Of a DNA stretch of 26,183 nucleotides, positions 796-18,499 are shown piece after piece. Source of the DNA: Promethearchaeota archaeon. Lineage in GTDB: Archaea; Asgardarchaeota; Lokiarchaeia; Sigyniarchaeales; SOKP01. The first letter of the stretch is position 1; each line of letters opens with the position of its first letter. The stretch covers positions 1 through 26,183 of the forward strand of contig JBHLMQ010000043.1 of NCBI GenBank assembly GCA_048938005.1, in the 5' to 3' direction. Made by a program: the position numbers and the translations under genes. Under the pieces are notes generated by a model. The model did not search any database and was not told the DNA's origin. It saw only the letters and a list, made by a program, of their open reading frames with translations.

Positions 796-2109
796 TTAAT
801 GAGTAGCACACGAAATACAGGGATCAAAAGCTCTGATTATTCTCTGCACCTCTTTTTTCACTAAATTAATATCACCTGTTTTTTCAAATAATTCTTGAGC
901 ATGTTTCGTAATCATCTCATTAATAAGTGGAATATTAAACTCAGTAGCAATAAATAATTTTATTCGATCAATAGAATTACTTTCATTAAGGTGATAATGA
1001 TGAATTAATATCCCTCTAGGTGCTTCAATAATACCTATCCCATCCAGATTTGTTATTGAATTCAGAGGAGAAAATTTTTCTCTTATATTTAAAGAAGGAT
1101 CGTTTAAAATTTGTAATCCATGATAAGCTTCAATATACATTTCTAATAATCTAATAAAATTAGCAAATAATATATTGTTTTTCCATGATTTATTAAAATA
1201 ATCAAGATAGGTATGAACTTCATCAATTCCATAATCCTCGATAATATTATAACGGGAAAGGGGACCAACAATCACATTTTTTTTATTTTCAAAATAAAAA
1301 TCAATTCCACGTAAATCATTTTCTTTACCAAAATAGGCAGAATAGTTATTTTTTTCAAATTCTATCAAATTTTTATTGTTTTCTTTTATTCTTAAATTGC
1401 CTGAATAACGATCATAATTTTCATTGTTAGAAAGGCCAAGAAAAATAAAATGTGGAAAATAATATTCTTTTGGTGGTATTTGATTAGAAAACATTTCAAT
1501 AAATTTTTCTATAATCCATTCTAAATTGTTTAAAGCCTTTTGAAATTTCTTTTTAGCAAGTGAAATATTTTTTCTAAAAGGGGAATATATAACCCCTCCA
1601 GGGATAACTGAAATCAAATGAACAGACCTACCACCAAATAAATTATTTATTTCATTTCCAATTTTAATTAATTCATATAAATTTGATGCTAATTGAGGGT
1701 CATAATTAATTAATTCATAAGGAGTAAACGTTTTTTGACTAAAATCAAAAATTGCTAAGAGATCTGGTAAAGTTTGGAAGAAAAAATTCATAGAATGAGA
1801 TTTAATTAATTCTCCACTCATTAAAAGGTGTCTTAAAAGAATAGTTTGTTCTGAAACTTCGATGTTATATATATTTTCTATTGCTTTACAACTTGCGATC
1901 GCTTGAGAAGCATAACATAACCCACAAATTCGAGACACTATTTTTGGAATATCCAATAATTTTTTTCCGATTAAGAAATTTTCAAATCCTCGATATATTT
2001 CGAATTCAAAATTTACTAATGAAATATCATCATTCTGGAGTAAAATTTTTACATCTCCATGACCTTCAACTCGTTTGCAAACATCAATGACTTTTAACAA
2101 TCTTATCAC
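796..2109 (-). CDS. mvhA: [NiFe]-hydrogenase large subunit, group 3 (MvhA-like), with no C-terminal extension and a Gln in L1
   Basis: Motifs RVEGHG, L1 RICGLCYASQ, EAPRG and L2 RAFDPCISCATH followed directly by TAA. The start is GTG 2109 (overlapping the mvhG stop) or TTG 2100 after a GGTGA SD. Confidence 0.92.
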   Translation of the reverse strand: MIRLLKVIDVCKRVEGHGDVKILLQNDDISLVNFEFEIYRGFENFLIGKKLLDIPKIVSRICGLCYASQAIASCKAIENIYNIEVSEQTILLRHLLMSGELIKSHSMNFFFQTLPDLLAIFDFSQKTFTPYELINYDPQLASNLYELIKIGNEINNLFGGRSVHLISVIPGGVIYSPFRKNISLAKKKFQKALNNLEWIIEKFIEMFSNQIPPKEYYFPHFIFLGLSNNENYDRYSGNLRIKENNKNLIEFEKNNYSAYFGKENDLRGIDFYFENKKNVIVGPLSRYNIIEDYGIDEVHTYLDYFNKSWKNNILFANFIRLLEMYIEAYHGLQILNDPSLNIREKFSPLNSITNLDGIGIIEAPRGILIHHYHLNESNSIDRIKLFIATEFNIPLINEMITKHAQELFEKTGDINLVKKEVQRIIRAFDPCISCATH

Positions 2110-2864
2110 CTTCTAAATTTTGGTTTTGAATAGCGATAAAAAATACCAGTATAATCTTTTAATTCTTGAGATAAATTTATCAAGCTCAAATAATTAATAA
2201 GATTGGATGTAAAGTCTTTTGATACCGGGCCCATACATCCTTCGCATGGAAGCCCCATTTTTATGCATTTATATTCACAGCCATCACGAGTTATAGGACC
2301 TAAACATAAAATACCCTTTTCTAAAAAACATTCAGAATTTTCTTCATCTAGACTAATTTCTTCTGGATTTGGATTAATTTTCGAGATATTTATATGAGAA
2401 TTTATTTTCATATTCCCCTTTAATGAGCAATTAGCACACATGTTTTTCTCTGATAATATTATATCTTTATTCTCAACTAACCTGATTAGACTGTTTCCAA
2501 AAAGTTTAGAAGGAGGAGGACAACCAGGAATAATACCATCAATTTCAATATAATTAGAGATTGGATCTGCTACTTTTGAACTTGAAAGGCTTAAAATTCC
2601 TCCAAAACATGCACAGGTTCCCAAAGCATAAACTTTTTTTGCATGTTTTCGAACATCTTGAAGCACCGTTATTTGCGTTTCCTCAGAAACACAGCCTTCT
2701 ACTAAAGCAATATCTGAATCTTCAATATTTTTAGCATCTAAAATAAATTGAAAAAATATTATCCTTGTTCTCTCAAGGAATTGCGGAAAAATATCTAAAG
2801 AAATAAGAGTTGAGATGCACCCACTACAAGAAGTTAGAGAAATTATTATAACTCTAGGCTTCAA
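2106..2864 (-). CDS. mvhG: [NiFe]-hydrogenase small subunit (MvhG-like), about 252 aa
   Basis: Proximal-cluster motifs CSGC, VEG, GTCA and PGCPP. Distal Cys-rich region CANC...CFLEKGILCLGPITRDGC..KC...PCEGCMGP. Start moved from 2915 to TTG 2864, which follows an AGGAGG SD and gives MKPRVIIISLTSCSGC. Confidence 0.9.
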   Translation of the reverse strand: MKPRVIIISLTSCSGCISTLISLDIFPQFLERTRIIFFQFILDAKNIEDSDIALVEGCVSEETQITVLQDVRKHAKKVYALGTCACFGGILSLSSSKVADPISNYIEIDGIIPGCPPPSKLFGNSLIRLVENKDIILSEKNMCANCSLKGNMKINSHINISKINPNPEEISLDEENSECFLEKGILCLGPITRDGCEYKCIKMGLPCEGCMGPVSKDFTSNLINYLSLINLSQELKDYTGIFYRYSKPKFRR

Positions 2865-5403
2865 ACTTAATCTCCTCCTGTAATTTTTTATAAAATTTAT
2901 TTGAGATTTCAGCAAATCTATTACCCTCTACCGCATTCATATGTTCAATTACTATTCGATCTTTGTATTTCGGCGGTATAATATTTTTTAATAACTTAAT
3001 TTTGTTTTCTACTTTTTCGATTCCATCAATATATCGACAAGCATTTTGTCTACATCCAAATATCATTACTCCATCGAAACCGAGTTCAAATGATTTAATA
3101 ATAAAATTAGTATCAATACGTCCTGTACAAGGAACACGTACAATAAAAGTATTTGGATTATATGAAATTTTCTTAAGACCAGCATCATCAGCAGCGGCAT
3201 AACCACAAGAAGCACAACAAAATGCAATAATTTTTGGTTGCACTCTGAATTTTGAAAAAACTTTAATTGTTGCAAAAATCTTTTCAGAAGTGTCGATATT
3301 TAAATCTATTGCATTGGTAGGACAGACACTAACACAAGTACCACATCCCTTACATTTGAATTTATCTATACTTATTTTATCTGATTCTAATGTAATAGCA
3401 TTATAAGGACAAATTTTAACACAAAATCCACATAAACCACATTTATTTTCATCAATTTTAATTCCACTAAACTCTGCTATCAAATAATCTTTAGAAAGCA
3501 AAGAGATAATCTTTAAAGCACATTTATTAGCTGATGAAATTGTAGAATTATAATCTAATGGACCAAAGATAGTCCCAACTCCATAAATACCAGATGCTAA
3601 TGTATCTTCACTCATAAATCCATTATCATCTAGTGTAAAATCCATATATTTTCGAAAATTTGTTAAATCTTCATTAGGGATATATTTTAGATTTAATACT
3701 ATTAAATCGCTTGGAAATTCAATATTATCAGCAATAACATGATTTATATCTTTATTAGTTTCAATAGTAATTTGATTAGCATATAAAAATCTTGGATTTG
3801 TTGATCTTAACAAAATCTCTTCCTTATCTTTTAATTTACTTAAATCATAAAAAATATTGATTTCGCAATCAGGATTTCTTATCTTAATATCCTCAATATA
3901 TTTTTGCGCCAAAATTTCTGAGTAATTTGAAAGATATTTTGATGGACCAACCTCTTGGATAATAGAAATTGAGTTTATAGGTTTTTTATCTGATAATCTT
4001 ATAAGTTTTCCTTCAGTAATACCATCGTAAGATAATATACGTTCAAATTCTGGCGATGTTATTATATTATTTTGTGGATTATAGTGGTAATCCTCTAAAT
4101 CCCTATAAAAATCAGATCCAATAGCAATTACTTTACTGCCAACCTTGATTTCGAGTTTTTCTTCTTTTTGAGTTAAATCTATTGCTTTATTCACACACGC
4201 GCGTTCACAAATTCTACAATTAAGACAATTTTTTAGATCTTCTTCATCAATTAAAGGAATATATGGATATGAATGAATAAATGGGATATATATTATTTTT
4301 CGATTAGTTAAGCCAAATTCATATTGATTTGGTTTTTCTATACTACAAATTTCTATACAATGTTTACATCCAGTACATTTTTTTAAATCAATATAACGAG
4401 GTTTTTTAACCAAATTTAATGTGAAATTTCCTACTTCACCTGATACATTTTCAATATCAGTATTAGTAAAAATTTTTATATTTTTTTCATTCACTAATTC
4501 ACTTATTAATTCTGAAATAAAACATATTGAACAATCACCCATATTATGGATTCGATGCCATCTGGCTACCTTACCACCTAAAGTTGGTGATTTTTCAATT
4601 AGAAAAACTTTAATACCGGATCTTGCTAAATTTAAAGCAAGAGTTATACCTGCAATTCCGCCCCCTAAAATTGCACAGCTCTTTTCTATTTCAACTCTTT
4701 TAACTTCTATTTTTTTTTGAAGGTTTACACGTTCAATAGCAGCTTCAATTAATAACTTAGCTTTTTCTAATAAAAGTGAAGGATCTATTTGATTTATTTC
4801 AAACTGATGTGCCCAACAACATTGCTCTCTAATATTGGCTACTTCTATATTTGCACTGTCAATAACATTATCAAAAATTCGTTCAAAAAGATGTTGATGT
4901 GTTCTTGGAGAACATGCGGCTATTACAATTTTATTTAAAAAATTATCTTTAATCCATTGAGCAATTTTATTAAAATTCTTTTGTTGACATAAGTTCTCAA
5001 AAACTTTTACGGAAACTACTTTTTTTAACTTATTCACATAATTTTCAATTGCATTAATATTAATTATATTTGAAATTTCTGTATTACAAGTGCAAATTAT
5101 TACTCCAATTCGGCTTATTTCGCTTCCCTTTGAATCCAAATATTCGTCAATATTTTCGCCCGATAAAATTCTTTTATTAATATTAAGTATTTTAAGCACA
5201 CGTTTACCATCTTCAGTAAGAAAATATGATTTCCTATTTTTGCCTATTAATGAACTAATTTTTTTAAGATGAAAATTTAGTTGTCCCGTTGTTTCTAAAC
5301 CAAGTTTTTCCATTAAATCTGTATAGGGAATATAACCCTCCTTTTCTAATAATAATAAAATTTTTCTCCTAAATGGATGAGATAATATTGAATATATATC
5401 CAT
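2854..5403 (-). CDS. Winged helix-turn-helix :: degenerate HdrA :: MvhD fusion protein (849 aa)
   Basis: Residues 1-75 look like an ArsR-like wHTH (ILSHPFRRKILLLL...YTDLMEKLGL..TGQLNFHLKKI...YFLTEDG). HdrA motifs follow: IGVIICTC, AACSPRTH, NIREQCCWAH, GGGIAG, two 2x[4Fe-4S] domains and EFER. The C-terminal MvhD domain reads AFCCASCGYAAAD...RVPCTGRID...GCRQNACRY. Confidence 0.9.
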   Translation of the reverse strand: MDIYSILSHPFRRKILLLLEKEGYIPYTDLMEKLGLETTGQLNFHLKKISSLIGKNRKSYFLTEDGKRVLKILNINKRILSGENIDEYLDSKGSEISRIGVIICTCNTEISNIININAIENYVNKLKKVVSVKVFENLCQQKNFNKIAQWIKDNFLNKIVIAACSPRTHQHLFERIFDNVIDSANIEVANIREQCCWAHQFEINQIDPSLLLEKAKLLIEAAIERVNLQKKIEVKRVEIEKSCAILGGGIAGITLALNLARSGIKVFLIEKSPTLGGKVARWHRIHNMGDCSICFISELISELVNEKNIKIFTNTDIENVSGEVGNFTLNLVKKPRYIDLKKCTGCKHCIEICSIEKPNQYEFGLTNRKIIYIPFIHSYPYIPLIDEEDLKNCLNCRICERACVNKAIDLTQKEEKLEIKVGSKVIAIGSDFYRDLEDYHYNPQNNIITSPEFERILSYDGITEGKLIRLSDKKPINSISIIQEVGPSKYLSNYSEILAQKYIEDIKIRNPDCEINIFYDLSKLKDKEEILLRSTNPRFLYANQITIETNKDINHVIADNIEFPSDLIVLNLKYIPNEDLTNFRKYMDFTLDDNGFMSEDTLASGIYGVGTIFGPLDYNSTISSANKCALKIISLLSKDYLIAEFSGIKIDENKCGLCGFCVKICPYNAITLESDKISIDKFKCKGCGTCVSVCPTNAIDLNIDTSEKIFATIKVFSKFRVQPKIIAFCCASCGYAAADDAGLKKISYNPNTFIVRVPCTGRIDTNFIIKSFELGFDGVMIFGCRQNACRYIDGIEKVENKIKLLKNIIPPKYKDRIVIEHMNAVEGNRFAEISNKFYKKLQEEIKFEA

Positions 5404-5505: not shown

Positions 5506-6633
5506 TTAATATTTCCATGTTATCAATTTTTTTCTCATGTTTTTTTCCATTCTTACTATTTTTGATTGGGAGAATTGCGCAATTTTTTCTTTCATTTCCT
5601 TATGAGTAGAAGCATCCAAATTTAAAATTTTAATTACACCTGCCTTTATTACTTTATTCATTATTTCTTTTCCTTTTTTAGTGCGTATAATTACAGTTGT
5701 AAATTTATCTTGAGAGCCCAAACCTCCAAAAGAAATATCTGAGTAAATATTAGTGAAATCACCGCAAACACTACAAGCTGAGCGCATGTATTTTGTTAGT
5801 TTTTCAAAGGGTATATGGATAGTATTTTGAGAAGTTCCCTGATTCTTAAGGTTGATAATTAAATTTTCTTTAATGTTTAATCTTTCAATGTTTTTGAGTT
5901 TAAATTTAAATTCTTTTTCGAATTTCTCAACCCTTACTTTATCAAAAAAAAAATTCTCGTAGCAGAATAAGCCCAAACAAATTTCTATGTTTTCTGATGG
6001 AATAATCCCTAGATTTTGCATACACCTGATTGTATAGATCTGGCATGGTGTTCCAACTAATGCTAATTTCTTTAATTTATAATATCTTAATTTAGGTAAT
6101 GAGCGAGTATACGTGTGAAATTTTTGTACAGTATCTAACTGTGGAGATACGTCTAACGTAACACCTGAAGCTTTAATTAAATCTTCTTTACTTTTAGCGA
6201 GTATAGCTTCTCTAGAAAAAGGGGCTTTTGTTTTCGCAACAATTGCTCCATCAATCATTTTATTTTCTATTAAATAATTAATTATTGAGTTTACAACACC
6301 ACCATCTGTTCCATATTTCAAAAATTCTTTATCTGTGGCTTGGCAAGAATAAATTCTTTCTACAAATCCTAAAGGCATTGACGAAAAATCTGAAAAATTA
6401 AAAGTTTTATTGAGATCCGCGTCTAAAACGTGGGTCTGTGGACAAATAAGATAACAAATCCCACATTTAAGACACTTTTCTTTATTTATATATTCTGGAG
6501 GCAAATTTGGTTCCTTAAATCCAATTACCTCATTTTCAATTGAATTACAAAAACTTACGCACCCTCCACATTGCTGACAAATACCAGGCTTATGGACTTC
6601 TTCAATTAAATTATTAAAAGTTTTTATATTCAT
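5506..6633 (-). CDS. Coenzyme F420 hydrogenase/dehydrogenase beta-subunit family (FrhB-like) with an N-terminal ferredoxin domain
   Basis: CQQCGGCVSFC and CLKCGICYLICP, DGGVV, LVGTPCQI, GLFCYENF, CSVCGDFT..YSDISFGG. An AAGGGTGA SD lies upstream. Confidence 0.88.
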   Translation of the reverse strand: MNIKTFNNLIEEVHKPGICQQCGGCVSFCNSIENEVIGFKEPNLPPEYINKEKCLKCGICYLICPQTHVLDADLNKTFNFSDFSSMPLGFVERIYSCQATDKEFLKYGTDGGVVNSIINYLIENKMIDGAIVAKTKAPFSREAILAKSKEDLIKASGVTLDVSPQLDTVQKFHTYTRSLPKLRYYKLKKLALVGTPCQIYTIRCMQNLGIIPSENIEICLGLFCYENFFFDKVRVEKFEKEFKFKLKNIERLNIKENLIINLKNQGTSQNTIHIPFEKLTKYMRSACSVCGDFTNIYSDISFGGLGSQDKFTTVIIRTKKGKEIMNKVIKAGVIKILNLDASTHKEMKEKIAQFSQSKIVRMEKNMRKKLITWKY

Positions 6634-6707: not shown

Positions 6708-6725
6708 TGATAAATATTATTGTCA
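6708..6725. promoter_or_regulatory. Candidate operator TGATA-N8-TGTCA, next to a minus-strand TATA-like box (TTTATATA, about 6729-6736) for the frhB-like operon
   Basis: An 18-bp variant of the perfect palindrome at 6875-6892. Confidence 0.5.
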
Positions 6726-6874: not shown

Positions 6875-6956
6875 TGACAAATTAATTTGTCAAAATAAGA
6901 TTAATTTTTCTTATCAGATTTTTTAAATCTCTTTTAACTCATCATATAATCGGAAT
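6875..6956 (+). promoter_or_regulatory. Promoter block of seleno-hdrA: perfect palindrome TGACAAATTAATTTGTCA (6875-6892), AATTTTTCTTATCA box and TTTAAA TATA-like box
   Basis: The palindrome is read directly. The block aligns ungapped with 16003-16084 at 63/82 positions. Confidence 0.7.
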
Positions 6957-7074: not shown

Positions 7075-9111
7075 ATGTCTGAAAAACAGACCATTGTTAG
7101 AATAGGAGTATATATTTGTAGATGAGGAGTCAATATTGGTGCTAAAATTGATTGTGATATTATTAGAGATTATGTTGAGGCACTCCCTAATATAATTGTT
7201 GCTAGAGTAAATGATTTTACTTGTAGCGATCCAGGACAAAATATTATTAAAAATGATATTTTAGATTTAGACTTAAATCGAGTAGTTGTTGCAGCTTGTA
7301 CACCAAAAATTCATGAATCCACTTACCGAAAAGTGTTAACTGAAGCTGGTTTAAATCCATATTATTTTCAAATGGTTAATCTCCGCGAACATTGCTCTTT
7401 TGTATCCTCAGGTAATAAAAGAAATAACACAGAAAAAGCTATAAGATTAATACAAGCAGGAATAAACAGGGCACGAGAATTAGAAATTATTCCTCATAAA
7501 AAAATTTCAGTGAAAAAAGAAGTATTAATAATAGGAGCAGGAATTGCTGGGATGAATGCTGCATTAGATTTAGCAAATCAAGGGATAAAAGTCTATTTAG
7601 TCGAAATAGAAGCTACAATTGGTGGAAAAATGGCACAATTAGATCGAATTTATCCAACTGATGATTGTGCTATATGAGTTCTCGCTCCTATTATGGTCAG
7701 TACTTCAAAACATCCAAATATAACATTATTTACTTATAGTGAAGTCGTTGAATTCAGTGGCATCCCTGGGAATTATGATATTAAAATACGGAAAAAGCCC
7801 CGTTATATTGATGAAAAAAAATGTACTGGTTGTGGATTATGTACAACAAAATGTCCAATAAAAGTACCAAACGAATTTAACAGAGGTATTGGTGAGCGAA
7901 ATGCGATTTACATACCTTTCCCACAAGCAGTCCCAAAAGTTGCTCTAATTGATAAGAGTATATGTATAGGATGTAAAAATTGTCAAACAATTTGCCCCGC
8001 AGAAGCCATTGACTTAGACCAATCTTCAGAATATTTTGATTTCAAAGTTGGTGCAATAATTATAGCCACAGGATGGGATGAATATCCAATTATGAAAAAT
8101 AACGAATATAAATATGGTATTTATCCCGATGTAATTACTCAAATAGAGTTAGAACGTATGTTAAGTCCAGTTGGACCAACAGGAGGCCATGTATATAAAA
8201 TTTCTGACGGAAAAATCCCAAAAACAGTGGCTATGATTCAATGTGTGGGTTCAAGATCCTTAAAAGGGAATCCCTATTGCTCAGGAGTATGTTGTAATGT
8301 TGCTCTTAAAAATGCTCAATTATTAAAACAAGAATATCCTGATATAGATATTGCCATTTTTTATATAGATATGCGAACATGGGATAAAGGAAATGAAGAA
8401 TATTATAGAAAAGCGAGAGAAGCGGGGATAATGATGATTCGGGGAAAAGTAGGAGACATACGAGAAGAGCCAAATACAAAAAAACTAAAAATACGAGCTT
8501 CATCAACCTTAACAAATGATATTATTACAATGAATACAGATTTAGTTGTATTATCAACGGGTATGGTTCCTTCTAAAAATACTGCACAAATAGTTGAGAC
8601 TTTAAGTTTAGGCAAAGACATAAATGGGTTTTTAACTGAAGTTCATGGATGTTTAAAACCTCAAGAGACAAATAATATGGGCATTTATATATGTGGCTGT
8701 GCTGCTGGCCCTAAAAATATCCCTTATTCAGTATCTACAGCCCTAGCCGCAGCAAGTAAGGCATCTACATTACTTTCTAAAGAGACAATAAGTAAAGAAT
8801 TAATTATTGCTGAAATAAATGAATCTAAGTGTATGGGATGTCATAGATGCGAAAAACTCTGTAATTATAATGCTATAAAGATTAATGAAGAAAATATTGC
8901 TGAAGTAGATGATCTAAATTGTAAAGGTTGCGGGGTTTGTGTATCCTCATGTCCCGCTCATGCAATCGATCTCAAATATTATAGAGACAAACAAATTATT
9001 AAAGAAATAAAGGGGATCTTTAGTACTGACCTTGAATATAAGGAAGAATTTATTGAATCTATTGAACTAATTTGGAAAAAGATTGAAGCACTAGCTCCTC
9101 ATAATATATAA
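7075..9111 (+). CDS. hdrA: Heterodisulfide reductase subunit A, selenoprotein with two Sec (U17, U201), 678 aa
   Basis: ATG 7075 follows AAGGTGG. A single frame is interrupted only by TGA 7123-7125 (GVYICRUGVNIG) and TGA 7675-7677 (YPTDDCAIUVLAP). The paralogue at 10821..13934 has Cys at both sites (VCRCGTNIG, FPTLDCSLCILAP). This call merges track ORFs 7333..7677 and 7693..9111. Confidence 0.93.
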
Positions 9112-9186: not shown

Positions 9187-10317
9187 TTATAATTGAGTAT
9201 TTGTTTTTAATGAAATTAATTTTTTATACCAATTAAGTTTCTTATTTATCCAATCTCGACTTTCGCTAGCTGCTACAATAAATTGTTCAATTAATCCATA
9301 AGAAAGAAGAGATTTGATTATTTTATGACCTATTTCTGTTCGAATAAGTATCATTGAATAATCTTTTGGTGCTCCAGATGATCCAATACTTATATCTGAA
9401 AATCGACCAGTAAATTCATTACATTCGTGGCAATGTTTTCTGATTGCAGGGTCTAGTTTTTTGATGTCTACTTCAATTTCTTCATTTTTTTTAGTAGATA
9501 TAAAAAAATTCTTCTTTATCCATGTTTTTTCAATATTAATTGGATTTACATTTACTTCTTTTCTTAAGATATCGAATAATTTGCTATAATCAAAATTTTC
9601 GAAACAAAAGAGACTTATAATATATTTAATAACATGAGCGGGTTTAATACGTAAAAAACGCATTTTGCTTATTGCTCTGCATTGACAAGGTGTGCCAACA
9701 AATGCCAAGCGTAATTGGTCTATGTCAAAAATCCTTCTTTTCCTGAAAATTTCTTGTGAAATATGATATAAATCCTTTAAAGGGATTATCTGAGAAGATA
9801 TGGAAAAGCGTGTCCCTGCTGATTTTAACAAATCATCTTTGTCAAATATAATTTTTGGAATTGGTTTAAAGTTTTTATCAAATTCCGAAACTATAGCGGC
9901 ATCAATCTTGTATTTATCAAATAGATAAGCTAGAATTGTTGAAACTACACCTCCATTTTGTCCAAGTTTCGCTATCGCAGCGTTTGTTGTTTTTGCTGCG
10001 AGAATTTTAATAATATGTCCAATTTTATCTTCAATTTTGTAAGCATTATTTAATTCTTTTAATAATGGGGAAGTTTGAGGACATATATAATAACATACAC
10101 CACATTCAGTACAATTATAGCCATTTTTTTCTGATTTAAACCTTGGTATATATTCATCCATTTCAATAACATCAAAATTTTGACTTTCACAATATGCTAC
10201 ACATGCAGCACAACTACAGCATTTATCAGTTTGTATAATTTCATTATCAAGGTCTTTAAAAGTTTTTAAATTAAAATCAATAAATTTTTTAGAATTTGAT
10301 TCAGTCATAATAACCAT
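9187..10317 (-). CDS. FrhB-like F420-dependent oxidoreductase beta subunit with an N-terminal ferredoxin domain (second copy)
   Basis: CCSCAACVAYC, CTECGVCYYICP, GQNGGVVS, FVGTPCQ, LFCFENF, CHECNEF..RFSDISIG. The start may be ATG 10308. Confidence 0.88.
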   Translation of the reverse strand: MVIMTESNSKKFIDFNLKTFKDLDNEIIQTDKCCSCAACVAYCESQNFDVIEMDEYIPRFKSEKNGYNCTECGVCYYICPQTSPLLKELNNAYKIEDKIGHIIKILAAKTTNAAIAKLGQNGGVVSTILAYLFDKYKIDAAIVSEFDKNFKPIPKIIFDKDDLLKSAGTRFSISSQIIPLKDLYHISQEIFRKRRIFDIDQLRLAFVGTPCQCRAISKMRFLRIKPAHVIKYIISLFCFENFDYSKLFDILRKEVNVNPINIEKTWIKKNFFISTKKNEEIEVDIKKLDPAIRKHCHECNEFTGRFSDISIGSSGAPKDYSMILIRTEIGHKIIKSLLSYGLIEQFIVAASESRDWINKKLNWYKKLISLKTNTQL

Positions 10318-10338
10318 CCTTTTATTTCTAATTTTTAA

Positions 10339-10818
10339 TTAATTACGTTTAAATTCCATTATTCCAAATTTTTTGGGGATTTTTGATTCCCCTAACTCTT
10401 TAATTGTTTTTGTAAATTCTATGATAAGCTCTGAAAATTGTTTCCCTTCGCTTGCTGAAATTGAGTATACCCGAAATCTCCCTTCCTCAATTCCGATCAT
10501 TTTTAATAAATTCTTTAAATGTTCCATTCTGATTAGCATATATTCAAAACCGTGTATATAATGACAATCACCCTTATGGCATCCAATAATTAATACACCA
10601 TCTATTCCATTATTAAAAGATCTTAAAATATATATAGGCTCAATTCTGCTTGAACACATTACTCTAACAATTCTAATGTTTGGAGGGTATTGGAATCTTG
10701 ATACTCCTGCTAAATCCGCTCCAGCATAACTACACCAATTACAGCAAAATACTAAAATAGTTGGTTCAAAATCTTTGATTAATCTTTTCTTAATTTTTAA
10801 CAAGTTATACTCACCCAT
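10339..10818 (-). CDS. mvhD: Hydrogenase [2Fe-2S] subunit MvhD (Cys form)
   Basis: FCCNWCSYAGADLAG, RVMCSSRI, GCHKGDCHY, ISASEG. Confidence 0.95.
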   Translation of the reverse strand: MGEYNLLKIKKRLIKDFEPTILVFCCNWCSYAGADLAGVSRFQYPPNIRIVRVMCSSRIEPIYILRSFNNGIDGVLIIGCHKGDCHYIHGFEYMLIRMEHLKNLLKMIGIEEGRFRVYSISASEGKQFSELIIEFTKTIKELGESKIPKKFGIMEFKRN

Positions 10819-10820
10819 CT

Positions 10821-13800
10821 TTAAGCAATATCATATATAGGTGATTCTATTCCTGGTAATAAATCAATCATCTGGTTAATTTGAAACTTGCTAAAATGAT
10901 TTTGATCTATAGCACCAACTGAGCATTCTGCAACACATCCTCCGCAACCTTTACAAACAGCTTTAATTACACGAGCTTTATGTATATTAATAGTATATAA
11001 ACCCATTTGTTTTGTAGTTTCATATAATTCGATGGCGTTATAAGGGCAAATTTCAGCACATCTACCGCATCCAATGCATTTATCTTCATTAATTTCAGAT
11101 GTTATACACTCAGCTTCTATTTCTCCTTTTATCATTAATATCGCTGCTCTACCAGCTGCCCCATATGCTTGAGTTATACTTTCACCAATCCATTTTGGCC
11201 AATGAGCCCCACCACATAAAAAAATACCTTCTGTTGCAAAATCTATTGGTCTAAGCTTTGCATCAGCTTCTAAAAAAAAACCATCTTTATTTGTTGGAAC
11301 TTTCAACAATTTCGCTAATTGTTCAGTTCCTTCGGCAGGGACTTTAGGGGTGGCTAATATTAATAAATCAACATTATATTCTAAGTCTGTTCCAGCACCA
11401 ATGTTTTTATATCTTATATGAAATTTGCCATTTTCGTCGCTGATTTTAATATCATCAATTGAATTGTATTTCTCATACGTAACTTTTTGTCGAAGATTTC
11501 GCCATAGATTTTCAGCATTTAAATCTGAAAATTGAAACTCTCTATATAAAACATGAATATGTGCTTTTGGGTTGATATTTAACAATTTCTCGATATTTTT
11601 TAATGCTACTCCACAACAAATATTAGAACAATAGGTTTTTATATTATCTCCATTATTATATTGGTTCCTCCTTTGATCTACGCATAGTATTATTAAAGCA
11701 TCATTAAATCTAGGAATATCTTCATCCTTAGTAGATGTTAATTCTGTTTGGGTTAAGACCTGTTTGGGATATCTTTCTGATAAATAGGACCATCGATTTG
11801 TCTTTATTTGCTTGGTTCCCGTAGCTACAATTATAGTACCTACTTTGAATAATTGATCTTCTGAATTTTTTTGGAGATTTCTAACTTTAACTTGATAATT
11901 TCCAACATAACCTTGAATATCAACAACTAGAGAGTTTAATAAAATATGAACATTAGAATTATTCTTCAAATCATTAATTTTCTGTAAAATTTGAGTTTTC
12001 GTAATAGGTATATAATATAAATCAATAAATTCGATTGCCACTCCTCCAAGTAAAGATTTCTTATCTACAAGATAAACTTCAAATCCTTGGTTCGCTAAAT
12101 TATGTGCAGCAGTTATTCCTGCTATTCCGCCACCAATTATTAAAGATGATTTTATAACTTTAACTTTAATAATATCTAACGGTTTTAAATTAATTACTTT
12201 TCCCAAATACATTCTAATTAAATCGCATGCTTTTTTCGTTGCCATTTCAGGCTCTTTTTGATGAACCCAAGAATCTTGGTTTCTTATATTTACTAGCTCA
12301 AATAAAAATGGATTCAAACCAACTTCTTTTAAAGTACTCCTAAATAATTGTTCATGTGTTCTAGGAGTACAAGAAGCGACTATAAATCTATTAAGATTAT
12401 ATTTTATGATTAAGTCTTTAATACGTTCTTGGGAATCAGAGCTACAAGAATACATATTTTCCTCAACATGAACAACATAAGGCAATTTAGAAACATAATT
12501 TACTACTTCAGAAACATTAACAATGCCTCCGATATTAGTACCACATCGACAAACTAAAATACCTACTCGAGGTGTATCCTCAGGTGTTATTGTTATTTCT
12601 GGAGGATATTTAATTTTTTTTATTTTTTGAAATCTAACAGAGTATAATTTTTCACTAATTTTAGCCGCACATGCAGAACCTTCAGCAACGGCCATTTGAA
12701 TATCATTTGGTTTTCTAGAATAACCAGTTACAAATATATTCTTTCTTTCAAGTAAGATTATATCTTTTTCACGAATATAGCCTAAATCATTAGAATTCAC
12801 ATTCAGTTGTTTTAAAAGTTTATAATAAGAAGGAGTTGGAGATAATGCACTAGCTAATACAGCCATATCCACTTCAAAAGTTCCAACTTTCCCTCTGTCA
12901 ACGTCCTCGAAATATAGTTTTAATTTCCCGTTAGCTAAATTCCCTTTGATATATGAAACGCGACCATTAATATATTTAACCTTATATTCATATTTACTTT
13001 TTTCAATAAACTCATAAAAGCTCTTCCCTTTAGCTCTGATTTCTGTATTAAAAATATAACATTCAATATTTGGATCATGTTCTTTAACAACAATAGCTTC
13101 TTTAGCTGAATTCATACAGCATATAGCAGAACAATATTTTTTACATCCAGAATGATGAACGTTCCGAGAACCTACACATTGTATAAAAGCAATTGATTGA
13201 GGACGTTTTTTATCATCTAATTTTATAATTTGCCCACCGGTAGGTCCATTTGCAGATAATAAGCGTTCAAATTGCATACTAGACAAGACATTTGGGGAAT
13301 CACCCGCGAAATTAGTATATATTTCTGGCATTTCTTGGCTCTCTCCTGTAGCAATAACAATAGCACCTACATTTAATGTTATTTCTTCTGGTTTTTGGAA
13401 AAAATCTATAGCGTCAGCATTACAAGCATTAGCACAAATTCCACATATTCGAAAATTCAAATATAAACAATTTGTATCATCAATAAGATATACTGGAGGT
13501 ACTGATGATGGAAAAGGAATATATATACTTTCTCGAGTTTTTAAATGGGTATCAAATTCGCTAGGAATTCCTTTAACTGGACAAATTTTTGCGCAATCTC
13601 CACATCCTTTACAAACATCTTCTTTTATATATCTTGGCTTTCTTATAACTAATATTGTGTAATTCCCTGCACATCCTCTAATTTTTTTAACATAAGAATA
13701 AGTAAATAACTCAATATTTGGATTTCTATACACATCAACCATTTTAGGAGCTAAAATACACAAACTGCAATCAAGTGTAGGAAATATTTTATCTAATTGA

Positions 13801-13934
13801 GCCATAGTTCCTCCAATTGTAGGTTTAATTTCAACTAGATATACTTTAAACCCTAACTTAGTGAGGTCTAATGATGCCTGTATACCAGCTATTCCACCCC
13901 CGATAACTAAAACATTACTCTGCAGTTTTTGCAT
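10821..13934 (-). CDS. hdrA: Large HdrA-like protein with two FAD-binding modules (1037 aa)
   Basis: Two GGGIAG Rossmann motifs and two cluster motifs (QCVGSR..YCSAICC; LCVDQR..YCSNICC). The HdrA N-terminal domain (GILVCRCGTNI, ASCTPRTH) sits in the middle, and there is a C-terminal 2x[4Fe-4S] domain. Confidence 0.9.
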   Translation of the reverse strand: MQKLQSNVLVIGGGIAGIQASLDLTKLGFKVYLVEIKPTIGGTMAQLDKIFPTLDCSLCILAPKMVDVYRNPNIELFTYSYVKKIRGCAGNYTILVIRKPRYIKEDVCKGCGDCAKICPVKGIPSEFDTHLKTRESIYIPFPSSVPPVYLIDDTNCLYLNFRICGICANACNADAIDFFQKPEEITLNVGAIVIATGESQEMPEIYTNFAGDSPNVLSSMQFERLLSANGPTGGQIIKLDDKKRPQSIAFIQCVGSRNVHHSGCKKYCSAICCMNSAKEAIVVKEHDPNIECYIFNTEIRAKGKSFYEFIEKSKYEYKVKYINGRVSYIKGNLANGKLKLYFEDVDRGKVGTFEVDMAVLASALSPTPSYYKLLKQLNVNSNDLGYIREKDIILLERKNIFVTGYSRKPNDIQMAVAEGSACAAKISEKLYSVRFQKIKKIKYPPEITITPEDTPRVGILVCRCGTNIGGIVNVSEVVNYVSKLPYVVHVEENMYSCSSDSQERIKDLIIKYNLNRFIVASCTPRTHEQLFRSTLKEVGLNPFLFELVNIRNQDSWVHQKEPEMATKKACDLIRMYLGKVINLKPLDIIKVKVIKSSLIIGGGIAGITAAHNLANQGFEVYLVDKKSLLGGVAIEFIDLYYIPITKTQILQKINDLKNNSNVHILLNSLVVDIQGYVGNYQVKVRNLQKNSEDQLFKVGTIIVATGTKQIKTNRWSYLSERYPKQVLTQTELTSTKDEDIPRFNDALIILCVDQRRNQYNNGDNIKTYCSNICCGVALKNIEKLLNINPKAHIHVLYREFQFSDLNAENLWRNLRQKVTYEKYNSIDDIKISDENGKFHIRYKNIGAGTDLEYNVDLLILATPKVPAEGTEQLAKLLKVPTNKDGFFLEADAKLRPIDFATEGIFLCGGAHWPKWIGESITQAYGAAGRAAILMIKGEIEAECITSEINEDKCIGCGRCAEICPYNAIELYETTKQMGLYTINIHKARVIKAVCKGCGGCVAECSVGAIDQNHFSKFQINQMIDLLPGIESPIYDIA

Positions 13935-13989
13935 TTTTTAATCATCATAAAATATTATTTATTTAACAAATCGAGTTTTCACAATGTAT

Positions 13990-15246
13990 TTAAACAAGAA
14001 AAAGCAATTTTCCTATAAAGCTTGCTAAATCCATCACCTTTATATTGTTTCTTAGATCTTTTTTCTCTTCATTTGAAGAAGGTTCGTTTAGATAACAATT
14101 GAAATGTGTCAAACATTTTGGACAACAAACAATTAAGTATTCCGCGCTAGTATTAATTGCTTCATTTATACGATTTTGCCTTAAAAAGCGTGAATATTCA
14201 TTACAATTTAGAAATGTTGCGACGCCACAACAATTAGCATCATCTTTAATATTATCCATTTCTATCAATTCAACTCCTGGAATTTGTCGTATCAATTCTC
14301 TTGGAGCGTCATATAATTTTCCACCTAAACGTCCCATTCGACAAGAGTCATGATATGTTACCTTAATCTCAGAACTTTGAGGAAATTTAACATATTCAAG
14401 AATTTTTTCTTTTAAAAAAAATTCAGAATAATGAAAAACTTTGAAATCAAAACCATCTACTATTTTTGGATAATCATATTTCCATATTCTATATCCTTCA
14501 GCACATCCAACTATAACAATTTTTACTCCAGCATCCTTATAAAGCTGGGTATTATATTCAGCAAATTTTATAAAAGTTTCAATATCGCCCTCACCCCATA
14601 AAATATCATGGCCACAGCATTTTTCATTTAAAACTACCGGTACAATATTGGCCTCATTAAGTAAGCTTATTATCGTTATGGGTATTTCGGTATAATTACA
14701 TTTAAAATTATAAAAAATTTCTTCCATTAAAGGCAAACATCCAATAAAATAAGCAATTTCGCCTGAATCTGCTGTTTTTAGCTCTTTTTCTTCCAAAAAA
14801 TCTAATTTATTTGGATTTATTGGATTATTTGCTGTCATTTTCGAAATTAAGGGTACAATTTCATTATGAGTTTCACACTGAGTAATTCTATCAATTTGAA
14901 TTTTACTATTTCTTGATGCCTTTCTCAATTCTAAGATTAAATCAGGTATTCTTACTCCTAAATTCTCTTGAGTCATTGGACAATATATTGAACATTGACC
15001 ACATGTAAGGCAATTCCATATATTATGATTAGTTAAGACTTCTTCTATTGGATATAAGATTAAATCTCCTACCAATTTTCGTGGAAAAAATACGTCTAAA
15101 TGCGAAAGTGGACACACATTTACACATCGATTGCAGGCAAAACAATAATTTGCCATTGAAATTACATTTTTAATAGTTACCCCTAAGTTTTGAAAGTTAG
15201 AATTACTACACTTAATTTCATTGTTAATATAAGAAGACATAGACAA
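13990..15246 (-). CDS. HdrD-like Fe-S oxidoreductase (4Fe-4S dicluster plus two CCG domains)
   Basis: CFACNRCVNVCP, CLTCGQCSIYCP, KCCGH, GCAEG, YHDSCRMGR, NCCG, CCPKC. The start is TTG 15246 or ATG 15240. Confidence 0.88.
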   Translation of the reverse strand: MSMSSYINNEIKCSNSNFQNLGVTIKNVISMANYCFACNRCVNVCPLSHLDVFFPRKLVGDLILYPIEEVLTNHNIWNCLTCGQCSIYCPMTQENLGVRIPDLILELRKASRNSKIQIDRITQCETHNEIVPLISKMTANNPINPNKLDFLEEKELKTADSGEIAYFIGCLPLMEEIFYNFKCNYTEIPITIISLLNEANIVPVVLNEKCCGHDILWGEGDIETFIKFAEYNTQLYKDAGVKIVIVGCAEGYRIWKYDYPKIVDGFDFKVFHYSEFFLKEKILEYVKFPQSSEIKVTYHDSCRMGRLGGKLYDAPRELIRQIPGVELIEMDNIKDDANCCGVATFLNCNEYSRFLRQNRINEAINTSAEYLIVCCPKCLTHFNCYLNEPSSNEEKKDLRNNIKVMDLASFIGKLLFLV

Positions 15247-16184: not shown

Positions 16185-16814
16185 ATGGAAGTATTAGAAT
16201 TAAAACCAATAAAAAACAAAAGTATATGTATATATTTAATAGAAAAATCGAGATTTAATTTTCTACTCAATGATATTGAAAATTTAAATGAATTAATACA
16301 TAAGAATGATATTAACTTTATTACAATTGATATAGATGGCGAAGATTTCAAAAAGTTCAAAAATTCAAGTTTTTCAAAGGTTCTCAATGCTTTAAATATA
16401 GAATATTATCTATTAGATATGCCTGAGTATGCATATGGATATATATATGAAGAAATAGTGAGAAAAGAAGAACAAGTTAGTGAATTATTACATGAATATC
16501 AAAATATGATTGATAAAGACTCTTTTAAATGCCTAAACTTAAAATCCTGGATTGATGTTCTTAAGAACGAAATAATACAGGACAAAAATATTTTAGAATT
16601 AAAAATAAGACCACAATGGATTGTTAAAAAAATTTTAAATTTAGTTAAAAAACAAAAAAATGAGAATATTTCTCTAATTCATTTTGCTCATGAAAAAATT
16701 ATTTCAGAAACAATTAAGCAATTAAATGAGCTTCATATAGAAGTAATTTTTTATGACTTTAATTGTATTTACAATATCCCATATTTAATTATAAAACAAG
16801 GGGAGAGTAATTAA
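16185..16814 (+). CDS. Hypothetical protein, paralogous to the N-terminal domain of the downstream gene
   Basis: Starts MEVLELKPIKNKS versus MEVLELKPLKKKS, with colinear similarity throughout. TAATG stop/start overlap with the next gene. Confidence 0.8.
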   Translation: MEVLELKPIKNKSICIYLIEKSRFNFLLNDIENLNELIHKNDINFITIDIDGEDFKKFKNSSFSKVLNALNIEYYLLDMPEYAYGYIYEEIVRKEEQVSELLHEYQNMIDKDSFKCLNLKSWIDVLKNEIIQDKNILELKIRPQWIVKKILNLVKKQKNENISLIHFAHEKIISETIKQLNELHIEVIFYDFNCIYNIPYLIIKQGESN

Positions 16815-18499
16815 TGGAAGTTTTAGAATTAAAACCTTTGAAGAAAAAAAGTTTGAAATTGGTATTGATAGAAAGTGAATTTCCAATAGAGTGGTGGTTT
16901 GAGACATCAGCACAGAAAAAGCATGATTTAGTATGGAATTTACATCTAATTTCGAAGGAATACCTTAATCTAATTAAAGATCTCATAGCAAAATATAATC
17001 CTGATTTTGCTGTCGAGGAGAAAGGAAGTCGATGGGAAGATACAATATCTCACGATGATCCTTTAGAAACATTATTCAGGGAATATAAAATCCCATATAA
17101 AATGGTAGATATTTCAGAAAATGCAGAAAATTATCTTTCCTCGAATTTGGAAGATCACAGACAACTTATAAAGCAATTAATAATATCAATTAAAGATATT
17201 AAAAAGAGTAATGATAAAAACTTTCCAAAAGATGATTTTGAGTTTCAGAGAATGGTTTTATGGAAGGAATATTTGCAGCAAGAATACAACCTTCAAGAAA
17301 ATGAAATAAGATATAATGTTCGTGAAGCTTGGATGATGATGGGAATTATAAAATTTGCAAAGAAAATGATTGAAAAAAAATTGAAAGCATTCTTTATCTG
17401 TGATCATAGGCATTTCAAAGGTATCACTAAATTAGCAGAAGATTTAGGCATTCAAACCGAAGAAATAAGAATCAAACGGTTAGCAAAAGTTATAAATAAT
17501 CCTGGTTCTAATTCCATTAATACTATAATTGGCAAATCTATACTTGAATTATCTCCAATTAAAGTGAAAAAGAATGAATCACTAGAAAAAATTTGTTACT
17601 TTTTTGATACTGATGATAATGCTTCTCCTTTCGATATAAATATGGCTTATGATGCTGGTTTTGATGTTGTTATCCCTATTAGTAAGATGACTGCTGAGCA
17701 AGTCCCAAAGCTAGTACAGGATGCCATTTTTTCACGTAAGCCAAAAGCACCCACAACATTTTTTATTGGCGGTTCTAATGTTAAAGAAGGAGAGGAAATA
17801 GCTAAAAGAGTTATAAAATCGTTAATAAGCCCATTTGAATGTCCAGTGATTATTGATCCTCGTGGTTCTCACACCACAGCCTCTTCAATCGTTGCTAAAA
17901 CTATTCAAGTCGCAAGGGAACTTGATCTATATGATTTAAAAGGTAAAAAAGTAGTTATTTTTGGAGCAGGACCAGTTGGAAGAATAGCAGCTATACTAGC
18001 AGCAAAATTAAAATGTACAACTTATCTAGTAGAAACATGGGAAAAATCCAGTGAACAATCTATTAAAAAATTGGCAAAAGAATTAATGGAAGAAGCTGGA
18101 GAAAATGCTACAGAAATTGTGGGTATTTTTGCACCAAACGATGAAAAAAAATTAGAAATAATAAAAGATGCAGATATTATTTGGTCACTTGCTGCTGCTG
18201 GAGTACAAATATTATCAAAAAGTTTAATGCTTAAACTTAAAAATAAAATTCTAATTGATATAAATTTAGTTCCTCCTTATGGAATTGAAGGATTAAAGCC
18301 AAAAGATGATAACAAAGAGATCTATCCAACTATATACGGAATTGGCGCTTTAGCTTTAGGGCGTTTGAAATCTAATATTGAGGCAAATATACTTAAAGAA
18401 GCATCAAATAGTAAGGGAAAAAAAATTTTTGATTATAATTATGCTTTTGAACAAGCAAAGAAGATCTTGTTAGGAAATGAAATAAAAATCTCTGCTTAA
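16814..18499 (+). CDS. Unknown N-terminal domain (about 245 aa) fused to NAD(P)-dependent methylene-tetrahydromethanopterin dehydrogenase (MtdA/MtdB family)
   Basis: SPFDINMAYDAGFD, QDAIFSR, FIGG, DPRGSHTTA, GAGPVG, AAAGVQI, DINLVPPYGIEG and GIGALALG are MtdA/B family motifs. Confidence 0.88.
   Translation: MEVLELKPLKKKSLKLVLIESEFPIEWWFETSAQKKHDLVWNLHLISKEYLNLIKDLIAKYNPDFAVEEKGSRWEDTISHDDPLETLFREYKIPYKMVDISENAENYLSSNLEDHRQLIKQLIISIKDIKKSNDKNFPKDDFEFQRMVLWKEYLQQEYNLQENEIRYNVREAWMMMGIIKFAKKMIEKKLKAFFICDHRHFKGITKLAEDLGIQTEEIRIKRLAKVINNPGSNSINTIIGKSILELSPIKVKKNESLEKICYFFDTDDNASPFDINMAYDAGFDVVIPISKMTAEQVPKLVQDAIFSRKPKAPTTFFIGGSNVKEGEEIAKRVIKSLISPFECPVIIDPRGSHTTASSIVAKTIQVARELDLYDLKGKKVVIFGAGPVGRIAAILAAKLKCTTYLVETWEKSSEQSIKKLAKELMEEAGENATEIVGIFAPNDEKKLEIIKDADIIWSLAAAGVQILSKSLMLKLKNKILIDINLVPPYGIEGLKPKDDNKEIYPTIYGIGALALGRLKSNIEANILKEASNSKGKKIFDYNYAFEQAKKILLGNEIKISA

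Follow-up and report, generated by a model that had tools for sequence, protein, structure and literature searches.

The subject of this analysis is a [NiFe]-hydrogenase large subunit encoded on contig JBHLMQ010000043.1 of a Promethearchaeota archaeon (assembly GCA_048938005.1; the whole stretch of 26,183 nucleotides (nt) that was analysed is referred to as the window), in which the histidine that usually closes the L1 motif is a glutamine and which ends on the histidine of the L2 motif, without a C-terminal extension. Both marks are also found in HoxC, a regulatory (group 2b) large subunit, and a preliminary description of this DNA took them as indicators of a sensory, protease-independent enzyme that had converged on the HoxC design. 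The sequence places the protein in an Asgard-specific branch of group 3, Mvh/3c-like by its partners, and supports the view that the likeness to HoxC is convergent and that the marks arose within the Asgard branch. The sensory part of the claim does not survive as well: as judged from the sequence, this is probably a working cytosolic Mvh-like [NiFe] hydrogenase, matured by the Hyp machinery independently of a protease, that would feed an HdrA flavoprotein which in turn probably autoregulates the operon. The gene and its two marks, with lengths given in amino acids (aa), are:

796..2109, minus strand: [NiFe]-hydrogenase large subunit, MvhA-like (group 3), 437 aa, with a GTG start, recognised by its open reading frame (ORF), PF00374 and PDB matches.
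1903..1932, minus strand: L1 motif RICGLCYASQ, residues 60-69, with Cys62 and Cys65 as metal ligands and Gln69 in place of the usual His.
796..825, minus strand: L2 motif DPCISCATH (799-825) followed by a TAA stop codon (796-798), that is, a C-terminal extension of zero length.

The assignment to group 3, already made in the preliminary description, is borne out by PF00374, which matches well above its cut-off (94.3 bits versus 25.8, E=1.1e-26) with both CxxC pairs present (RICGLC and DPCISC), and by the PDB, in which the best sequence matches are the group 3c enzymes 7t2r_D (E=1.1e-54), 5odc_F (MvhA; 1.1e-49) and 9sw2_F (2.3e-44). The NCBIfam equivalog models, with ShyA and VhuA at the top, all remain far under their cut-offs. 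The aligned group 3c structures do have the usual His and the extension attributed to the comparison enzymes, with the L1 motifs RICGICPVSH (7t2r_D), RICGICQVAH (5odc_F) and RICGICDVQH (9sw2_F) and extend past the L2 His by about 25 residues. Of what is expected of group 3c, the large subunit thus lacks both the L1 His and the cleavable C-terminal extension, and the kinship to MvhA/MvhG and the adjoining MvhD and HdrA are present.

Arithmetic on the minus-strand ORF confirms that the L1 codons run from 1932 to 1903, with Gln69 encoded by 1903-1905. The C-terminal end of the protein reads ...RAFDPCISCATH, the TAA follows directly, and the same frame, read past the end of the ORF, is littered with stops. 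Because the genome itself uses selenocysteine (Sec), read-through of a stop codon had to be considered. Across 21 loci (that of the window and 20 related ones), the codon after the L2 His is TAA in 18, TAG in two and TGA in one, and no conserved reading frame exists downstream of the L2 His in this set; this survey excludes Sec read-through or an annotation artefact as the cause of the missing tail. As the large subunit stops on the L2 His, there is nothing for an endopeptidase to cleave, and the proposed protease-independent design follows directly from the sequence.

Both marks are conserved in orthologues. In the best 120 of the 1000 matches listed (55-96% identity), for which the source names, where given, are Asgard only (Promethearchaeota and others), L1 ends in Gln in 116 of the 117 homologues with a readable motif and in His in one (P0115), and the tail has zero length in all 118 with a readable L2. 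L1 is unreadable in two N-terminally partial proteins and in P0092, and L2 in P0092 (which ends ...CATY) and one truncated protein. The occurrence of Gln together with the absence of a tail in the Asgard lineage is far beyond chance.

The history of the marks was followed on two trees. The first (FastTree, 152 rows) contains the query, two paralogues of the same genome, HoxC, HoxG and HoxH, 20 homologues (every sixth of the best 120) and 126 of 150 representatives, those with a length of 395-520 aa; the second (IQ-TREE quick search, LG+G4) contains 54 rows and carries SH-aLRT support only. The representatives are metagenome proteins, and no named MvhA or HydDB reference is among the rows. In both trees HoxC and HoxG are separated with a support of 100 from all group 3 rows (150 and 52, respectively), and the query lies inside an Asgard-only branch of its own (support 98-99), the named members of which are Jordarchaeum/Freyarchaeota, Helarchaeota and Sigynarchaeota. 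In these trees without a named MvhA, the branch stands beside rows holding HoxH (3d) and long-tailed Mvh-like rows. Since HoxC and HoxG fall outside all group 3 rows, the likeness to HoxC is convergent, as the preliminary description had proposed. From the outside of the Asgard branch inwards, the states encountered are:

Outermost: His and a tail of 3-7 aa (P0142, P0178, P0200, P0125).
Next inward: L2 His missing (P0131, ending ...DPCIPCAAL; P0146 and P0174, ...DPCISCLGA; family f17, ...DPCISCSSV plus 8 residues).
Next inward: His without a tail (P0122, at the base of the Gln clade).
Next inward: Gln and a tail of 5-7 aa (P0127, P0132, P0133).
Next inward: Gln and an 11-aa tail (P0123, a named Helarchaeota protein; also G240).
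Innermost: the clade with Gln and no tail (support 99-100), inside which P0115 has reverted to His.

These states argue against the use of the two marks as indicators of a sensory enzyme, as they are separable in the nearest relatives, in which Gln occurs with a tail (P0123, G240, P0127, P0132, P0133) and His without one (P0122, P0115). The two tail-less His members show His and Gln to be interchangeable on the Asgard scaffold. Outside the Asgard branch, a tally of 117 full-length representatives (107 with a readable L2) points in the same direction: no tail is present in 15 of 107, a tail of 1-15 residues in 51 and a longer one in 41, and the last L1 residue is His in 103 of 117, Tyr in seven, unreadable in seven and Gln in none. 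On the 152-row tree, the minimum number of changes is at least three for the Gln state and at least ten for the tail/no-tail state. Tail absence is therefore a recurrent trait across group 3 (one tail-less His cluster outside the Asgard branch is named F420-non-reducing hydrogenase, from Desulfobacterales), and Gln is private to the Asgard branch and HoxC among the rows examined.

Other departures from the canonical motifs were also noted. A separate group 3 clade has Tyr at the end of L1 (RICGICPVAY-like; P0167, P0182, P0224, P0234, P0236, P0244 and P0268), with tails of 7-12 aa except for the 179 residues of P0244, so that even outside the Asgard branch group 3 enzymes do not always have the L1 His. 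The f17 loci L029-L031 and P0131, P0146 and P0174, in which the L2 His is gone, have Lys for the Arg that opens L1 (KICGFCSAAH).

The large subunit is the last product of a four-gene operon in which the order is FrhB-like protein, winged helix-turn-helix (wHTH)-HdrA-MvhD fusion, small subunit and large subunit. Its partners, which include iron-sulphur (FeS) proteins, are:

2106..2915, minus strand: small subunit, MvhG/VhuG-like, at most 269 aa (PF01058; VhuG E=2.4e-35; 5odc_E (MvhG) E=4.4e-32).
2854..5403, minus strand: wHTH-HdrA-MvhD fusion, 849 aa (DUF7347 5.4e-9, HTH_24 4.6e-4, FlpD 9.3e-34).
5506..6633, minus strand: FrhB/FdhB-family FeS flavoprotein, 375 aa, first gene of the operon (PF04432 2.2e-37, PF04422 3e-15).

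The MvhG match of the small subunit, in which the FeS cluster cysteines align with those of 5odc_E, together with the HdrA2 and FlpD matches of the fusion, confirms that this is an Mvh-type and not a group 2b context; the true start of the small subunit is uncertain, its TTG start overlapping the upstream gene by 62 nt. In the fusion, the winged-helix domain occupies approximately residues 1-94 (5122-5403) and is followed by the HdrA flavoprotein/FeS body, with MvhD at the C terminus. The model of HdrA2 of Methanosarcina (NCBIfam NF040770) matches from residue 98 to the end (E=1.2e-172), but with 576 bits versus a cut-off of 1100, and the alignment of solved methanogen HdrA chains starts at residue 95-98, so that, unlike in this model and these chains, the first ~94 residues form a domain without a counterpart. 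The ArsR repressor 1y0u_A gives a weak match to residues 7-72 (E=0.13). In 17 related loci from named Asgard metagenome-assembled genomes (MAGs), of which two are cut by contig ends, the full 849-aa fusion and both hydrogenase subunits are present in all 15 that are long enough, and 11 of these 15 also have, immediately upstream of the fusion, an FrhB orthologue with 72-90% identity. The operon is also retained in the more distant families f20, f17 and f3, and the f17 loci L029-L031 mentioned above still adjoin the fusion. Identity across the 17 loci is 85-99% for the wHTH, 77-93% for the fusion, 75-92% for the small subunit and 70-92% for the large subunit, which makes the wHTH the best-conserved part of the operon products.

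A putative target for this DNA-binding domain lies in the divergent promoter region of the operon, where both of the following palindromes are located:

6875..6892, strandless: candidate wHTH operator, a perfect 18-nt palindrome with the sequence TGACAAATTAATTTGTCA, at a distance of 259 nt upstream of the frhB-like start.
6708..6725, strandless: second operator-like site TGATAAATATTATTGTCA, 92 nt upstream of the frhB-like start and differing from the 12 fixed letters at one.

With up to three mismatches, 0.07 matches to TGACAAATTAATTTGTCA are expected in the window, and with up to two mismatches the site is the only one in the 3.72-Mb genome. Exact copies of the 18-nt palindrome number zero in 37 fetched loci; the conserved sites were found with the half-site pattern TGACAA-N6-TTGTCA, allowing two mismatches, in the 450 nt that precede the first gene of the operon. 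Of 26 related loci (L016 and L036 being one contig fetched twice), 21 have at least two such sites, two have one and three have none, usually at -91 to -93 and -259 to -262 across families f1 and f20 (among L007-L037), against a genome background of 0.05 per kb. The regulator link is genuine as a sequence pattern, and binding of the wHTH at these candidate operators is predicted. The link does not depend on the marks of the large subunit: the f20 loci (L026-L028) have the same wHTH fusion and both sites, yet their large subunit reads RICGLCSSAH and carries a tail of 7-8 aa. As wHTH and sites also accompany relatives with His and a tail, the link is older than, and independent of, both Gln and tail loss, a further point against the marks as indicators of a sensory enzyme. 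The canonical paralogue of genome G225 (RICGICPVSH, 24-aa tail) adjoins an HdrA whose alignment starts only at residue 99, so that it has no wHTH.

An argument for catalysis comes from the distribution of the enzyme. When 251 genomes of the phylum were sampled, full-length matches with at least 47% identity occurred, among the matches listed, in 41 genomes, 40 of them in family f1 (55 sampled genomes, source genome included) and one in f3; the next-best matches, at 34-37% identity, belong to families f20 and f17. The source genome encodes three group 3 large subunits, including the present one, as well as one HycI-family protease, HypD and HypA. Of the two paralogues, that on contig C23 (437 aa) has RICAICNLSH and a 7-aa tail, and that on contig C9 (435 aa) has RICGICPIPH and ends ...LKLPDPWIK before L2, which looks like a VhuA/VhuU split; at the latter locus (L002, G000:C9, 58-2691), a 440-aa small subunit resembles two MvhG-like halves. 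In G049 (99% complete), G077 (92%) and G125 (85%), the only PF00374 matches are the orthologue of the present gene. No PF02906 ([FeFe] hydrogenase) was found by profile search in these three genomes or in the source genome (G000), nor was PF00346 in the three, all of these counts resting on MAGs, in which absence is never proven. As no other hydrogenase was found in G049, G077 and G125, any H2 metabolism there must use the present enzyme, and a sole hydrogenase in a 99%-complete genome speaks for a working enzyme. That this is the only hydrogenase catalytic subunit found in these genomes also counts against the sensory claim.

The framework shared with other group 3 proteins, including E15, G16, R60, C62, C65, R365 (EAPRG), D429, P430, C431, C434 and H437, is at least 97% conserved in the clade and at least 90% outside, and the retained four metal-binding cysteines and near-invariant residues, the Hyp maturases and the operon count for the catalytic interpretation. 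When 116 clade members were compared with 113 other group 3 representatives, five positions proved specific to the clade (at least 90% fixed in it and at least 60% otherwise outside):

Position 69: Gln in the clade; His in 95% of other group 3 proteins, Gln in 0/113; Gln in HoxC.
Position 112 (codon 1774..1776, minus strand): Gln in the clade; Leu in 78% of the others; Phe in HoxC.
Position 262: Lys in the clade; Glu in 91% of the others; Asp in HoxC.
Position 422 (codon 844..846, minus strand): Gln in the clade; Glu in 80% of the others; Gln in HoxC.
Position 428: Phe in the clade; Tyr in 76% of the others; Phe in HoxC.

The L1 His forms a hydrogen bond to a cysteine ligand, and the Leu112 column presumably lines the gas channel, with Phe110 of HoxC at that place. 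A strict coupling in which His69/Glu422 changed to Gln69/Gln422 was considered and dropped, given that P0127 has Gln69 with Glu422 and that P0122 and P0115 have His69 with Gln422; deeper Asgard relatives have His69 with Lys422.

In the mechanism that would follow for a working enzyme, the Ni-Fe site of the large subunit would split or form H2, and electrons would travel via the small subunit, which is MvhG-like and has three FeS clusters, to MvhD and then to the flavin of HdrA, which could in turn be linked to ferredoxin and to the FrhB-like flavoprotein, either in bifurcation or, in a fermenter, in confurcation towards H2. The large subunit would be made already "processed", and the Hyp machinery would have to load the cofactor without an endopeptidase step, in the manner of HoxC, Ech and CooH. 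Gln69, predicted to stand in place of the second-sphere His beside a cysteine ligand, would together with Gln112 and Gln422 probably retune the redox and proton properties of the site without abolishing turnover. With a wHTH on HdrA and two palindromes at fixed promoter positions, a feature older than Gln and tail loss, the complex most likely regulates its own operon in the fashion of a trigger enzyme. Trigger enzymes such as PutA and BirA have a fused DNA-binding domain, and like them the Asgard complex appears to combine an enzyme subunit and a repressor-type domain with palindromes in its own promoter; unlike them, it is a multi-subunit hydrogenase/flavoprotein of which DNA binding is predicted only.

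Among known systems, the methanogen MvhAGD-HdrABC complex (group 3c; 5ODC, 9SW2) and the HdrA-coupled 7T2R are the best matches, and here too MvhD and HdrA stand beside the hydrogenase. Unlike in MvhAGD-HdrABC, the Asgard HdrA and MvhD are fused and carry the added N-terminal wHTH, and the operon has an FrhB-like gene instead of HdrB/HdrC. Whereas MvhAGD-HdrABC and 7T2R have His and a tail of ~25 residues, the Asgard subunit has the L1 Gln and no tail, and on the present trees, with no named MvhA among the rows, its branch appears beside the 3c/3d rows and not inside them. According to the available text of PMC11216029, all characterised 3c enzymes oxidise H2 and [NiFe] hydrogenases are highly expressed in two cultured Lokiarchaeia. 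Asgard HdrA-HdrA-MvhD fusions have been described, and the accessible part of that report makes no mention of an HTH (PMC11237513). No report of an L1 Gln or of tail absence in group 3 or in Asgard archaea, nor of a wHTH on HdrA, was found in the literature surveyed, which was partly accessible and leaves subscription journals uncovered.

The comparison with HoxC is central to the alternative that the complex is primarily a sensor of H2 or of an H2-linked redox state, in which a slow, regulatory hydrogenase (RH)-like enzyme would reduce MvhD/HdrA in proportion to H2 and the redox state of the flavoprotein would set wHTH binding at TGACAA-N6-TTGTCA, hydrogenase and transcription factor thereby forming one complex. 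We regard this alternative as unlikely, though several observations favour it. HoxC, translated from the hoxC gene of C. necator H16 on pHG1, has the L1 motif RVCGICSVSQ and the end DPCMVCTVH-stop, which confirms that it has Gln in L1 and no extension; with the Asgard subunit it has in common these two marks and the Gln422 and Phe428 columns. The wHTH fusion, present in 15/15 loci, is the most conserved part of the operon products, two sites at fixed distances recur well above background in 21/26 loci, the perfect palindrome is unique in the genome, and the two other group 3 large subunits of the source genome, both with His (that on C23 with its 7-aa tail, that on C9 with a frame ending before L2), could be served by such a sensor.

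HoxC also differs from the Asgard subunit. An L0 motif with Asp (RVEGD) is typical of regulatory hydrogenases; HoxC has it, whereas the L0 of the Asgard subunit is RVEGH. HoxC is 485 aa long versus 437 aa, and hoxBC in C. necator adjoins a sigma-54 regulator and an ATP-binding (kinase) gene, while the Asgard subunit adjoins HdrA-MvhD. No histidine kinase, response regulator or other signalling protein is encoded among the window ORFs scanned. Of the group 2b features compared, the L1 Gln and the missing extension are shared, and phylogeny, the L0 Asp and a nearby kinase or response regulator are not. Moreover, the full HdrA flavoprotein/FeS body and the FrhB-like partner are retained, an amount of redox machinery well in excess of what a sensor would need, and in L026-L028 the wHTH and the operator-like sites accompany large subunits with His and a tail, so that the marks are not required for that link. 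The regulatory-hydrogenase Gln itself "seems not to be involved in H2 sensing", in the words of the available text of PMC5665086. Together with the sole presence of this hydrogenase in G049, G077 and G125, these observations leave the sensory claim of the preliminary description unsupported as stated. A bolder version is that in Lokiarchaeia-type Asgard archaea the whole hydrogenase-flavoprotein complex would act as a one-complex H2-responsive transcription factor, its Gln69/Gln112/Gln422/no-tail site having converged with bacterial regulatory hydrogenases to report H2 and the wHTH converting the redox signal into operator binding; on the present sequences we hold this to be doubtful.

Several points do weigh against a catalytic hydrogenase. 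The coincidence of Gln69, Gln422 and Phe428 with HoxC exceeds what would be expected from drift alone, and the wHTH and the candidate operators offer a plausible signalling output for the complex. The large subunit is slightly less conserved than the HdrA fusion and the wHTH, a pattern that is unusual for a catalytic subunit. The highly expressed Lokiarchaeia hydrogenases of PMC11216029, as far as the accessible text goes, could not be tied to the Gln/tail-less clade, and none of the 20 sequencing runs listed as containing the locus is recorded as RNA. Finally, HycI genes are present in G049 (G049:C9:106700-107014) and G125 (G125:C221:3279-3596), in which only a tail-less subunit was found; either a tailed hydrogenase went unassembled in these genomes or the protease has another role. 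The HycI-family protease, which occurs in 54 of 61 family genomes and was not found in G077, was for this reason rejected as a marker of tail-bearing subunits.

A further alternative, which we consider improbable, is that the marks are functionally near-neutral lineage traits, the tail having been lost from an already short one of 5-11 aa and Gln being tolerated for His, without mechanistic meaning beyond protease independence. It would account for the stepwise states on the tree (from His with a 7-aa tail through Gln with 5-11 aa to Gln without a tail), for the reversion to His in P0115, for the at least ten changes of tail state across group 3 and for the relatives that have lost even the L2 His (DPCISCSSV, DPCIPCAAL, DPCISCLGA). 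However, a Gln present in 116/117 homologues at 55-96% identity and in 0/113 other representatives points to selection rather than drift, and Gln112 and Gln422 are fixed alongside it. That the protein is a hydrogenase-like scaffold, inactive or devoid of cofactor, a notion that could draw on engineered tail-less forms of some other hydrogenases failing to receive nickel, is hardly credible in view of the four retained cysteines and other near-invariant residues, the purifying selection across the whole family, the presence of Hyp genes and the normal maturation of naturally tail-less enzymes (both statements on tail-less forms from the available text of PMC7294309).

A working enzyme of this kind would be of interest because H2 exchange is central to ideas on Asgard syntrophy and the emergence of eukaryotic cells, and because in some near-complete Lokiarchaeia-type genomes no hydrogenase other than this one was found. 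Naturally tail-less hydrogenases are placed in groups 2b, 2d, 4c, 4e and 4g and use the canonical Hyp machinery, according to the accessible text of PMC7294309, a list that the Asgard lineage contradicts within group 3. All four combinations of His or Gln with or without a tail exist as natural intermediates, which allow the roles of the second-sphere His and of the extension to be dissected, and the fused DNA-binding domain makes direct gene regulation by a hydrogenase complex a testable question.

The remainder of the window contains further genes of note. A divergent second hdrA (7075-9111, plus strand) has in-frame TGA codons at 7123-7125 (...GVYICR-U-GVNIG...) and 7675-7677 (...DDCAI-U-VLAP...) and is continuous if both are read as Sec; otherwise it falls into the ORFs 7333-7677 and 7693-9111. 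That HdrA is a selenoprotein in Asgard archaea is known from the literature. On the minus strand follows a second Hdr-type cluster (9187-15246), which consists of an FrhB-like gene (9187-10317), a stand-alone MvhD (10339-10818), a 1037-aa protein (10821-13934) with two pyridine-nucleotide-disulfide/flavin adenine dinucleotide (FAD) modules and ferredoxin domains, and an HdrB/C-like CCG-domain protein (13990-15246). A 561-aa protein encoded at 16814-18499 (plus strand) has a methylene-tetrahydromethanopterin dehydrogenase N-terminal domain (Mpt_N, 2.3e-25), and beyond its gene lie genes for FeoB, a ZIP transporter and TauE.

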